From contig NZ_JASGKI010000006.1 in the NCBI RefSeq assembly GCF_047600745.1, positions 496,345 through 560,344 of the forward strand: 64,000 nt of DNA, in the 5' to 3' direction. Positions within the stretch are counted from its first letter, which is position 1. Every line of letters starts with the position of its first letter. The notes beneath the pieces were generated by a model. It did not search any database, was not told where the DNA came from, and saw nothing but the letters and a program-made list of their open reading frames with translations. Position numbers and translations under genes: made by a program. Origin of the DNA: Paenirhodobacter sp. Its GTDB lineage: Bacteria; Pseudomonadota; Alphaproteobacteria; Rhodobacterales; Rhodobacteraceae. Of this stretch, positions 1 to 4,602 are shown in pieces.

Positions 1-199
1 TCCGATGCCACCGGCGCCTGGACCTGGAAAACCGCCGATGACGCCTGCGAAGCGGCAACGGTCCTCTTCCTGCGCAAATAAGGAAAGCCACTTTTCCGCA
101 AGGCCGGGTCTCCGGCGGCGATCCTGCCGCAGCTCAGCAAGATCGCCGGCCTGATGCCGACGCATACGCGCCGCTCCGACGAAGCCCAGACCTTCCAGC
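1..199 (+). pseudogene. Relic of strawberry-notch-type methylase/helicase gene (N-terminal part), interrupted by IS110; continues at 1705-1734
   Basis: Frame 1 reads SDATGAWTWKTADDACEAATVLFLRK*GKPLFRKAGSPAAILPQLSKIAGLMPTHTRRSDEAQTFQ. After removing 200-1704 it continues in frame as QFSTPIPLAY. I recognise THTRRS..Q.FQQFSTP from alphaproteobacterial plasmid/ICE methylase-helicase proteins (from memory). In-frame TAA at 79-81. Confidence 0.7.
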
Positions 200-302
200 A
201 GATGGCATGACCATTCTTGGCGCTCCCGCCGACGTGGGACAGGATCGCCAATGAGTGATCGCGGTCCGCACTCTTCTTCGGTCCGCAGCCGGAGGAGATG
301 AC

Positions 303-1412
303 ATGGAAGACTACAATGCCTTTATCGGTTTGGACGTGCACAAGGACAGCATCTCGGTCGCGATTGCGGATGCCGGCCGGGATGGCGAAATCCGGATGTA
401 TGGGACAATCGCCAATATGCCCGACGCTATCGCGCGCCTGATCCGCAAGCTGGTGCAGCGACATGGGAAGATCGAGGTGACCTACGAAGCAGGTCCCTGC
501 GGCTATGGGATTTATCGGCAACTCGCCGAAATGGGGATTGTCTGTCGGATCGTTGCACCGAGCCACACGCCAAAGCGGCCAGGTGAACGGGTGAAGAACG
601 ACACGCGTGACGCGCTGATGCTTGCGCGCTTGCTTCGTGCAGGCGAACTTACCTTTGTGTGGGTGCCTGACGCCACCCATGAGGCGATGCGCGATCTGGT
701 TCGGGCGCGCCAGGTTGCGTCGCAGGATGTCCGGGCAGCTCGTGCACTGATCCAGATGTTTCTGCCCAAGCATGGACTGCGGTGCAAGTCGAAGGCATGG
801 TGCCTGCGCTATCGGAAGTGGCTGACATCCCTGCCGCTTGAACATGCTGCCCAGAAGTTCGCACTACAGAGCTATATCAATCGCCTGGATCAGGCTGAGG
901 CCCGCAAGGCCGAGATTGAGGGCCAAATGGTCGATCTGATCCCGGGCTGGACGCTCGCCCCCTTGGTCCACGCATTGCAGGTATTCAAGGGGATAGGGAT
1001 GGTCATCGCCGCGACGCTCGCTGCGGAGATCGGGGACTTTTCCCGGTTTGCCAGTCCGCGCCAGTTGATGGCGTATCTCGGCCTGGTCCCCAGCGAATAC
1101 TCCAGCGGCAGCAAGCAGCGACCTGGCGGCATTACGAAAGCGGGCAACAAGATCGCGAGAGTGATGCTGGTCGAGGCTGCATGGTCGTACAAATGACCTC
1201 CTAAGGTCGGCGTGCTGCTCATGCTGAAACGCGAAAACTACAGCCAAGCGCTGAAGGACATCGGGTGGAAAGCCCAGGTGCGACTGAACCAGCGCTTTCG
1301 GCGTCTCGAAGGCAAAGGAAAGCGGAGCACTGTTGCTGCGGCCGCTGTTGCCCGCGAACTGGTCGGCTTCATCTGGGCGACGGCGATCATCGTGATGCCG
1401 AGGGCTGCCTGA
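303..1412 (+). pseudogene. IS110-family DEDD recombinase with one in-frame stop (TGA 1194-1196)
   Basis: Motifs GLDVHK, YEAG and KNDTRDA (DEDD), plus Tnp-domain GLVPSEYSSG and ITKAGN. The same frame continues after the stop to AVARELVGFIWA, ending at 1412. Confidence 0.9.
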
Positions 1413-1428
1413 ATCCTGCGCGTGCGAA

Positions 1429-1620
1429 TGTTGGCAGTGGCCAGGGCATCTGACGCGGGACGAGGCAAACCGTCGGTCGAGAATTGAGATCCGGAACGGT
1501 CCGGACATCTGACAGCAGAGTGAACGAACGCCTCTGACGCTTACCATAATGGGGTTTCGATCCCCGCATCGGAGTTTGAGCAACCGCCGATTAAGTCGGA
1601 TGCCCTGACCTCTGCCAACA
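1429..1620 (+). ncRNA. Candidate bridge/seek RNA of the IS1111-type element
   Basis: Closing stems 1429-1437/1612-1620 (9 bp) and 1444-1453/1596-1605. Target-matching guides at 1475-1486 and 1513-1517 flank a hairpin (1487-1510). An 8-nt match to the predicted circle junction lies at 1567-1574. Confidence 0.8.
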
Positions 1621-1765
1621 CCGCAAGGAGAACGAACATGACGAACTGCGCTCAAGCCGGGCGGCGGGAAACGCATGCCTATCCTCTTGACGAAGGGTCA
1701 TCGGAATTCTCGACCCCGATCCCGCTTGCCTATCATCCCCCGTTCCGGGGCTTGCTTGACGCAAG

Positions 1766-2110
1766 CAAGGCGCGTGCCCGGCGCAAGCTGAAGGAGGTCT
1801 TCGACCGCGACGGCTCCGAGGTCGCGGCCGAGGGCCTGCGCCGCATCGCAGAACTCTACGCCGTCAAGGCCGATATCCGCGACATCTCTCCCGGCCAGCG
1901 CCTGTCTGCCCGTCAGGCTCGCACTGTGCCGCGGATGGCAGCCTTCGGCGAATGGCTTCAGGCGCAGCGCCGGTAAATCTCCGCCAAATCCCGGCTGGGT
2001 GAAAAGCTGACCTACATCCATAACCAATGGGACGGGCTGCAAACCTTTCTGGCCGACGGCCGTGTCGAGATCGACTCCAACAGGGTCGAGAACCAGATCC
2101 GTCCGATCGC
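1766..2110 (+). pseudogene. IS66-family transposase (TnpC) internal fragment
   Basis: ARRKLKEVF...IAELYAV...LGEKLTYIHNQWDGLQTFLADGRVEIDSNRVENQIRPIA, with an in-frame TAA at 1974-1976. Both ends are missing. Confidence 0.85.
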
Positions 2111-2138
2111 GAGTGGCGAGTCATTGTGGCCCTCTTCT

Positions 2139-2639: not shown

Positions 2640-3462
2640 TCAACCGCCGGTCGCGTCGTCTTCCCGCACGAGGCGGAACCCCATGTTGTCGGGCGGCGCC
2701 CCGACCGAGCATCCCCCGGCTTTCGGCTCGCGGACAAAGGCCGTCAGCGCGGCGCGGTGCAGCCCCTCGGCCAGATAGATACCGCAACTGTGCCGCTCCT
2801 TGAGGATGGCGCCCTGCGCGTCCACATCCACCTGGCGCAGGCAGGTCGATGTCCATTCCCAGACCGCGCCGCCGATGTCGTGCACGCCGGTCGGGCTGCG
2901 GTTGAGCGTGCCGACCGGGCGGATGTCACGGTCGCGGGACCGGTCGCGCGCGGTTTCGGCATCGTATTCGGCAAGCCAGCGCACCGCCGGATTGGCCGGA
3001 TCGTCCGCGATGCCGAGCGCATCGTCACGGAACAGCGCGCCCGCCGCCTGCGCCCATTCCTCATCCGTCGGCAGCCGCCATGTCTGGCCCGTCCCGCGCG
3101 AGAAGCCAATGCGCATAGGCATTGGCGTCAAGCCAGCTCACCCCCGTTACCGGCAGGGTGTCCCCGGGCGGTCCGCCCGGCGCCGCGCAGGCACCATCGG
3201 CGACGCACCCCATGTATTCGGCCACGCTCACCGGATAGGCCATGATCCAGACCGGCGCGGGGATCTTTACCTCGGCGCGGGGCGGATCGACCGGGCGCCC
3301 CTCGAAGCGCCAGTCGCCGTTCAGGCGGTGCGAGAAGGGCCGTGGCTCAAGACGCACCACCTCCGGCCCCGGCACCATGGGGGCGGCGGAGACCCATACC
3401 CTTGCCCCCGCCCCCGCCGCGAGCGCCAGACCGACAACCGCGGCGATACTCAGGATCCGCAT
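2640..3462 (-). CDS. nirV: NirV (FGE-sulfatase-domain protein), +1 frameshift near 3103
   Basis: Two overlapping ORFs join as WLSRGTGQTWRLPTDEEW if one A at 3103/3104 is removed (273 aa). Motifs PVTGVSW, GAVWEWT and GFRLV. Directly downstream of nirK. Confidence 0.85.
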
Positions 3463-3479: not shown

Positions 3480-4602
3480 TCACACCCCGGAGGGTGCGAG
3501 CACCTGCATCATCAGGTCGTTGTTCCACTCACCCTCGACCTTGAAATGCGCCGCCGCGCCAAGCTCGAAAGCCTCGATCAGGTTATGGTTCACATAGGCA
3601 TAGACGCCGGGCTGCTCGAAAGTATACATCGCCGCCCCCGCCGTGCCGCCCGGAATGAACCAGGTTTCCTGATCGACTTCGGGCGCATTGTGGAACTTGC
3701 CCGTCGCCCAGACGAAATTGCCATGCCCGCCGATCAGGTGCGGCCGGGTATCGCGATTGGCCTGACTGTGCACGATCAGCACCGTCTCGCCGACCTTTGC
3801 CGTCATCGCGTGGTCGCCGGTCAGTGCGCCGACCTTGCCGTTGAAGACGATATGCGTCGGCGTCAGCGTCCGCATCACCTTGAGCGTGTCGTCATAGGAA
3901 TCGGCGGGGCTGTCATACTTCCGGAAGGCGCCGTTTTCGTCGCGCGGCACATAGAAATCCTGCTCGCCGACATAATAGACTCGATCGTAGGTCAACGAAT
4001 TGCCCTTGCCGTCCTTCAGCCCATCGCGCGGCAGCACCATGATCGCCCCGTTCATGCCCTGCACGACATGCCACGCCACCATGCCCGGAGGCGCGCAGTG
4101 GTAGACGAACACGCCCGCCTTGGTCGCCTTGAAGCGCAGGACCGTCTTTTCGCCCGGGTTGACCTGGGTCAGCGCACCACCGCCAAGCGCCCCGGTCGAG
4201 GAATGGAAGTCGATGTTGTGCATCAGGTCGTTGCTTCTCGGGGTTGATGAGCGTCAGTTCGACGTAATCCCCTTCGTGCACCACCATCAGCGGGCCGGGA
4301 ACGGTACCGTTGAAGGTAAAGGCAAAGGTTTCGGTGCCCGCGTCGTCAAGGACGATCTTTTTTTCCTCGATCGTCATCTCGAATTCGACGATCTTCGGGC
4401 CGGTGGTCGCCACCTGCTCATGGGCATGCACGAAAGGCGGATCGACCAGTTCGACCTTCACCCGGGGCAGCCCCTCGGCACTCGTGGCGACCGGGGTCAG
4501 CACTTCCTTGGTCTGGGCTGCAACGGTGCGCACCTGCGTCATGGCGCCCGCGATCGCGGCACCGGCCAGAATGGTGCGGCGGGTCATGGGAACGAATGTC
4601 AT
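3480..4602 (-). CDS. nirK: Copper-containing nitrite reductase, +1 frameshift near 4235
   Basis: Tat-like signal (TRRTILAG). Cu ligands HNIDFH, YHC, WHVVQGM and AYVNHN. Removing one T at 4235/4236 gives [16 protein letters not shown] and a 373-aa ORF. Confidence 0.95.

Follow-up and report, generated by a model that had tools for sequence, protein, structure and literature searches.

Near the left edge of the 64,000-nucleotide stretch of Paenirhodobacter sp. DNA analyzed here (the window), an IS110-family element splits a gene of mobile replicons, and the locus raises the question of whether the element was guided to that gene by its own RNA and, if so, what it would gain there. By every feature that can be tested on the sequence, the element is a member of the IS1111 group of the IS110 family. 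Its transposase matched the Pfam profiles DEDD_Tnp_IS110 (PF01548; E 4e-17) and Transposase_20 (PF02371; E 9e-23), a 3' noncoding region of 292 nt extends beyond the transposase stop, and the sub-terminal inverted repeats sit 7 nt (left) and 3 nt (right) inside the IS ends, as in the IS1111 group. These repeats are 10 bp long and agree at 9 of 10 positions in the window copy and at all 10 in relative L005; IS1111 repeats usually measure 11 to 13 bp (PMC11187229) within a range of 7 to 17 bp (PMC11208160), and the window repeats fall slightly under the usual length and inside that range. At all sites the insertion has a single orientation and no target-site duplication, and removal of the IS restores the reading frame. 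The first-pass annotation had recognized an IS here but gave it an extent of 186 to 1734; the true span is shorter, with two equivalent placements (Table 1) because one A is common to the IS end and the target. The TTGACG hexamer at the right end may, to judge from its -35-like sequence, be part of a promoter. The window copy is dead because codon 298 of its transposase is TGA, where intact relatives have Trp (comparison with L005); the transposase is intact in relatives of this IS.

Table 1. Features of the interrupted locus, in window coordinates
Feature	Position	Strand	Basis
5' remnant of strawberry-notch methylase-helicase gene; starts before the window, TAA at 79-81, ends ...T-F-Q-Q	1..199	+	tblastn/blastp
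IS1111-group insertion sequence, 1505 bp	200..1704 (or 201..1705)	+	Same end sequences shared by 22 distinct variants
Left sub-terminal inverted repeat ATGACCATTC, 7 nt inside left end	207..216	+	9/10 match to right repeat
DEDD transposase gene, 369 codons, broken by TGA 1194-1196 (W298 to stop)	303..1412	+	Pfam and intact L005
Predicted bridge/seekRNA: enclosing stem, target-binding part and donor-binding part	1429..1620	+	Inverted repeat 1429-1454/1595-1620
Predicted target guide versus top strand of right flank: GGTCGAGAATTG; conserved core TCGAGAATT	1475..1486	+	Covaries with target in sister lineages
Predicted target guide ACAGCAG, equal to top strand of left flank plus core (pairs bottom strand)	1512..1518	+	
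Predicted donor-binding segments CCAT (1544-1547) and CATCGGAG (1567-1574)	1544..1574	+	Match to predicted circle junction TCATCGG-AG-ATGG
AAGGAG (1625-1630), ATG (1638) and 22 open codons in frame with F-S-T-P	1625..1704	+	Fused ORFs by gene callers
TTGACG -35-like hexamer (1687-1692); right sub-terminal inverted repeat (1692-1701)	1687..1701	+	
3' host-gene remnant F-S-T-P-I-P-L-A-Y, ended by IS66 fragment	1705..1733	+	Translation
IS66 tnpC fragment in place of the rest of the host gene, stop 1974-1976	1734..2111	+	Pfam DDE_Tnp_IS66, E 8.5e-10

The window retains only the N-terminal part of the interrupted gene and F-S-T-P, and the assignment of the gene is by similarity: the left flank is 47 to 51% identical to the host protein of the relatives (blastp E 1e-29; tblastn with the reconstructed protein, E 9e-15). 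In those relatives, the host gene has EPSAGTG and NPPF motifs, and its downstream half matches AAA_34 (E 2e-120), Helicase_C_4 (E 1e-40), and, weakly, MTS; in L152 and L154, N6-methyltransferase motifs (TP, EPSAGxG, NPPF) are followed by AAA_34 and Helicase_C_4. This arrangement fits the DarB-like methylase-helicase family, a dyad with a strawberry-notch SWI2/SNF2 ATPase, in which the TP motif caps the helix before the methyltransferase core and for which an antirestriction role has been proposed (PMC5512222). The likeness extends to the TP and NPPF motifs, the SF2 ATPase, and the occurrence on plasmids and conjugative elements; IS insertion is not described there. The IS lies two codons ahead of the TP motif and interrupts the frame T-F-Q-Q/F-S-T-P-I-P-L (the slash marks the insertion point); without it, the site reads CAG CAA TTC TCG ACC, and the frame is regained on translation, which bears out the earlier description of Q-F-S-T within TFQQFSTPIPL. 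Beyond the IS, the host gene ends after about 9 codons at the IS66 fragment. Given the premature stops in both transposase and host gene, both partners in the window are relics.

The initial reading of the host gene as a strawberry-notch gene of mobile replicons is supported by these Pfam domains, by plasmid records, and by proximity to VirB4. The family is found on 548 PLSDB plasmids, 300 of them typed as conjugative. In a sample of 61 genomes, 17 passed the cutoff for it, with a patchy distribution and up to about 5 copies. Three genomes checked place it either on small replicons that also bear VirB4 or 28 kb away from a VirB4 in the chromosome; in a fourth, where several copies are chromosomal, no match to VirB4 was found. 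The flanks of related loci include Rep3, ParB, toxin-antitoxin pairs, radC, and a trb-like operon. A search of the source genome found no AAA_34 domain and no VirB4, and the contig that carries the window (C6) gave no match to tRNA, DnaA, RepC, Rep3, RPA, or VirB4.

Several side observations concern the neighborhood. At 1734 to 2700, the IS66 tnpC fragment adjoins an opposite-strand C-terminal remnant with an HTH_17/MerR-type domain, giving a graveyard of mobile-element pieces. Farther along, on the minus strand at 3480 to 4602, lies a nirK-like copper nitrite reductase gene (recognized from its sequence) with an apparent split into two frames near 4230 to 4250; the adjacent nirV-like gene at 2640 to 3462 also appears to be split, and an nnr/nor-like cluster runs on to about 10740. 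About 300 to 970 bases upstream of the window, on the minus strand of C6, an AbrB-type antitoxin and a PIN-domain toxin-like protein form a vapBC-like pair, likewise recognized from sequence, and toxin-antitoxin pairs also precede the host gene in several related loci. The same genome carries two copies of a more distant IS1111-group element (G000:C1:327000-328300 and C3:292700-294200), with a 3' noncoding region and different flanks.

The 3' noncoding region of the IS folds with a z score of -4.45, with compensatory change in 27 of 59 consensus pairs; an Rfam search of the predicted bridge/seekRNA returned no match. The reverse complement of the target CAATTCTCGACC lies in this region, at 1475 to 1486, as the sole exact match in the window and genome, and only 429 of 200,000 random genomic 40-mers (0.2%) have a 12-mer in common with the IS 3' region; this uniqueness, together with the rarity of shared 12-mers, argues that the guide match is real and beyond chance. 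The exact 12-nt match on which the first-pass annotation relied therefore exists, but its single 12-nt guide is ruled out: the full 12-mer matches at just 3 of 30 natural sites, and the guide is two-part. Within the RNA, the complement of the top strand comes first and the bottom-strand match second, the order known for IS1111 seekRNAs (PMC11187229). Farther downstream are the putative donor segments, the second of which varies along with the right end across sister lineages. We regard the RNA over 1429 to 1620, with its two-part target guide and donor segments, as a predicted seekRNA.

Relatives were gathered by transposase similarity, and their flanks were thus not chosen in advance. Among 41 distinct flank pairs, 36 proved to be the host gene at the same codon, 4 were other sites, and 1 was not assignable. 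Collapsing the flank pairs at 97% left 31 host alleles, which are interrupted at the same codon despite being only 33 to 95% identical (median, 59%); they come from Tabrizicola, Neotabrizicola, Sulfitobacter, Pseudosulfitobacter (two plasmid loci), Sphingomonas, Sphingobium, and metagenomes and are carried by plasmids, ICE-like islands, and metagenome contigs. Across the whole clade, 31 of 35 insertions lie in the host gene. The expectation that relatives with this guide would occupy the same codon of the gene family holds for 30 of 31 same-guide sites; the same guide was found in an unrelated gene once, in L010, where a perfect DNA match lies in a urea-ABC periplasmic binding-protein gene, and this exception argues that the element reads DNA, not the gene. 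In L011 and L197/L201, which are also outside the host gene, the guides are off by 1 to 2 nt. As a side observation from L010/L042 and L240, the guide has a repeated off-target match in P-E-Q-Q-F-S-T-L of urea-ABC-type binding-protein genes; this site is filled in L010 and empty in L240.

Some loci sample one event repeatedly (for example, L174 to L183 and many Pseudosulfitobacter plasmids), and the Pseudosulfitobacter plasmids with the IS are typed as nonmobilizable. In a DNA search, full-length copies occurred in 2 of 400 genomes of the family, so the element is rare; scanning 401 genomes from across the class for the guide pattern found none in those searched, and a scan of viral contigs for the IS right junction gave 13 matches, none of them an IS. 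More distant relatives, at about 50% identity, are inserted at other targets, and neither host protein is matched there; those in L077, L079, L084 to L090, L127, and L140 occupy mostly CTA/GACTAG-like sites and form a different target class.

Alignment of the 30 natural sites defines an effective target of CAGCA-R-TTY-(Ser)-AC. CAGCA and TT are invariant, the core is A in 17 sites and G in 13, the third Phe position is C in 23 and T in 7, the serine codon is TCN or AGC, AC is nearly invariant, and the next base is free; CA-R-TTCTCGAC is matched by 15 of the 30, and the +9 position is not conserved. The core position faces U in one guide and G in the other, and the C/T position faces G, so that wobble pairing would absorb both synonymous changes. 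The AGC serine introduces three mismatches, yet such sites are used, and pairing past the first four bases must therefore be loose. Conservation at +7 and +8 may reflect the Thr codon and not pairing. If only CAGCARTTY is counted, the source genome has 315 sites, which indicates that the guide does not fully explain the specificity. The first Gln codon is CAG in 30 of 30 filled sites versus 23 of 26 empty ones, there being few CAA alleles.

We consider it likely that an IS1111-group IS is guided to the Q-Q/F-S-T codons of the methylase-helicase gene and hitchhikes on mobile DNA. By analogy with the characterized IS1111 and IS621 systems, a circle with an AG core would be excised by the transposase; one loop of the RNA would pair with the circle junction and the other with both target strands, and the circle would go in at CA/R in a single orientation. 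Through G-U or G-T wobble, the guide could tolerate either Gln codon at the core and either Phe codon. The guide would be kept for the sake of a stable landing site, a protein-constrained motif that a mobile gene carries from genus to genus; the IS would parasitize the mobile element, often inactivating its gene, and spare the chromosome. The earlier idea of homing for horizontal spread gains support from one identical 1505-nt IS that occurs in both Sulfitobacter and Sphingomonas, in host flanks only 33 to 85% identical, and from the accessory, mobile nature of the gene. Overall, identical IS sequences were found in host alleles that are 33 to 89% identical (L008 and L009 are isolate genomes), which implies independent recent insertions and movement between orders. 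Weighing against the hitchhiking reading are the four sites outside the host gene, the nonmobilizable typing of the Pseudosulfitobacter plasmids, and the position of the window copy in a gene remnant on a contig with no VirB4 match.

One alternative explanation is that availability and survival alone produced this distribution: an arbitrary guide happens to match the motif, copies pile up at the commonest tolerated match, chromosomal hits are purged, and there is no benefit from cotransfer. The background of available sites gives this some substance, since the 61 genomes contain 46 empty sites that fit CAGCA-R-TTY-(Ser)-AC, of which half (23) are in the host gene, as are 14 of the 20 perfect ones. 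Insertions fall in the host gene more often than available sites do (Fisher p 9e-6 for the same guide and 3e-4 for the whole clade), but both p values are inflated, because the hosts are related and IS-bearing cells are probably richer in the gene than the sampled genomes, so that the proper baseline may exceed 50%. Filled alleles are also often decayed, and off-target copies exist. On the side of the preferred reading, a perfect site at G000:C4:1352538-1352551, which lies antisense within a gene for a PfkB-like kinase on the source genome's largest contig, is unoccupied, a single observation in a genome where the IS is dead. Against availability alone, the guide hardly varies among transposases that are only 75 to 82% identical, L163 has it retuned to a variant of the target, and the guides of sister lineages are likewise aimed at a mobile-element gene; arbitrary guides would not be expected to arrive repeatedly at coding motifs of mobile genes. 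On balance, we judge this explanation rather unlikely.

The covariation of guide and target therefore deserves closer description. In L163 (76% identical), the counterpart of the 1512-1518 segment is AGATCAG, and the site is D-Q/F-S-T-P of the same gene family. Three sister IS1111 lineages (59 to 67% identical; L250, L253, L259 to L267, and L301 to L304) are inserted antisense in IS66 tnpC genes, where the corresponding guide is CAGCCAG at the N-W sites, R-K-(N or S)-W-L-F, and CAGGTAG at the N-Y sites, K-N-Y-L-F. The guides thus follow the W versus Y variant, covariation is seen in four lineages, and all three sister lineages examined target a mobile-element gene. In the transposase tree, 15 methylase-helicase rows group together (100/100), with two IS66-targeting rows successively below (98/95 and 100/99); this tree omits P0073, includes three outgroup rows, is midpoint rooted with long end branches, and has no one-clade test. 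The IS66 and methylase-helicase targets both contain CA/GTTCT. Together, these data suggest that guides were re-aimed from IS66 to the methylase-helicase gene. A more elaborate scenario, in which an IS1111 lineage specialized on mobile-gene coding motifs began at the IS66 K-N-(W or Y)-L-F motif, was re-aimed to Q-Q-F-S-T by a few guide changes, follows variants of each motif by wobble and by mutation of its guide, and, in the main clade, allows part of the host protein to be made from a start that the IS provides in frame, is doubtful when taken as a whole.

The last element of that scenario can also stand by itself, as a self-mitigating insertion: the IS right end would provide a ribosome-binding site and start, so that about 1300 downstream residues, with the TP, SAM-binding, NPPF, and helicase portions, would still be made, lacking the first 105 to 130 or so. 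Of 10 close variants of the right end, 9 have AAGGAG, ATG, and an open 22-codon frame, the diverged L184 among them, and at four loci gene callers start fusion ORFs of 1286 to 1360 aa in the leader. The frame is open in all lineages at the host gene and closed in the L197 lineage, which is sited elsewhere. Nevertheless, the leader gives no signal of coding selection (synonymous to nonsynonymous changes of 10:25 versus 36:95 possible), and the ATG is missing in four variants (L174, L162, L010, and L163), three of them at the host gene. Downstream halves are also broken before 850 aa more often in filled than in empty alleles (10 of 17 versus 3 of 20; p 0.0075), a comparison in which the threshold was our choice and the filled set includes metagenome contigs. 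Insertion is thus more likely to inactivate the host gene than to rescue it; the in-frame start is suggestive only, and self-mitigation is improbable. The first-pass annotation had supposed little cost to the chromosome; under the guided, hitchhiking reading that we prefer, the chromosome would indeed be spared, but the excess decay of filled alleles suggests that the cost falls on the mobile element. As a practical aside, the leader makes annotation pipelines call near-full-length host proteins. At L175:2680-5399, where the leader ATG was lost, a small host deletion joins an ATG of the inverted repeat, in frame, to an ORF of 1330 aa; this single event in the L174 lineage is probably due to chance.

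Vertical inheritance of a few old insertions with the mobile element and no repeated targeting, to which the resampled loci (L174 to L183 and the Pseudosulfitobacter plasmids) lend some color, is barely credible and is refuted by the identical IS copies in diverged alleles, which need independent recent insertions, unless the assemblies are chimeric, and L008 and L009 are isolate genomes.

The proposed mechanism has clear counterparts. The element resembles ISEc11, ISKpn4, ISPst6, and ISPa11 (PMC11187229; PMC11208160) in its DEDD and Transposase_20 domains, sub-terminal repeats, long 3' noncoding region, guide order, and orientation. The targets described for those elements are noncoding (attC and REP), whereas here the target is a protein-coding motif with mostly synonymous variation. 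Partridge and Hall reportedly found in 2003 that IS4321 and IS5075 target the terminal repeats of the Tn21 family. These two and the attC-targeting ISKpn4, ISPst6, and ISPa25 are, like the present element, IS1111 members on other mobile elements; however, their target is a recombination or end site and not the conserved codons of a backbone gene, and no switch between IS66 tnpC and a methylase-helicase gene has been described for them. Integrative mobilizable elements in the SNF2-helicase, Maff2, or traG genes of Tn5252-family ICEs (PMC5704250) are likewise fixed-site parasites of a conserved ICE helicase-type gene, for which hitchhiking has been proposed. Unlike the IS described here, which would be RNA guided, is 1.5 kb, has no cargo, and is found in Alphaproteobacteria, they are protein guided by serine integrases and belong to Firmicutes. 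Group II introns home into conserved genes of conjugative elements, as Ll.LtrB does in a relaxase gene, and, as proposed for the present IS, they use RNA to recognize a conserved site within a coding sequence of a mobile element; they splice out and leave the gene working, whereas here repair would be only by excision, as far as shown. An incomplete literature search, with ISfinder not covered, found no paper on IS110 and strawberry notch, and no relevant one on IS1111 in IS66, on in-frame rescue, or on a series leading from IS66 to the methylase-helicase gene. The target class, a protein-coding motif of a mobile gene, is well supported and is unusual for the IS1111 group; the mechanism itself is known.

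How natural bridge RNA and seekRNA guides get their aim is largely open, and this lineage gives a defined case, in which a single codon of a mobile gene has been hit independently dozens of times and the background of available sites has been measured. It also provides data on natural mismatch tolerance in IS1111-type recombinases, which here accept either Gln codon, either Phe codon, and even TCN versus AGC serine, together with a short natural retargeting series (N-W, N-Y, D-Q, and Q-Q) that makes the hitchhiking idea testable. Finally, the element would offer a ready-aimed tool to mark or disrupt a gene that is widespread on plasmids and ICEs of Alphaproteobacteria and has only a predicted function.
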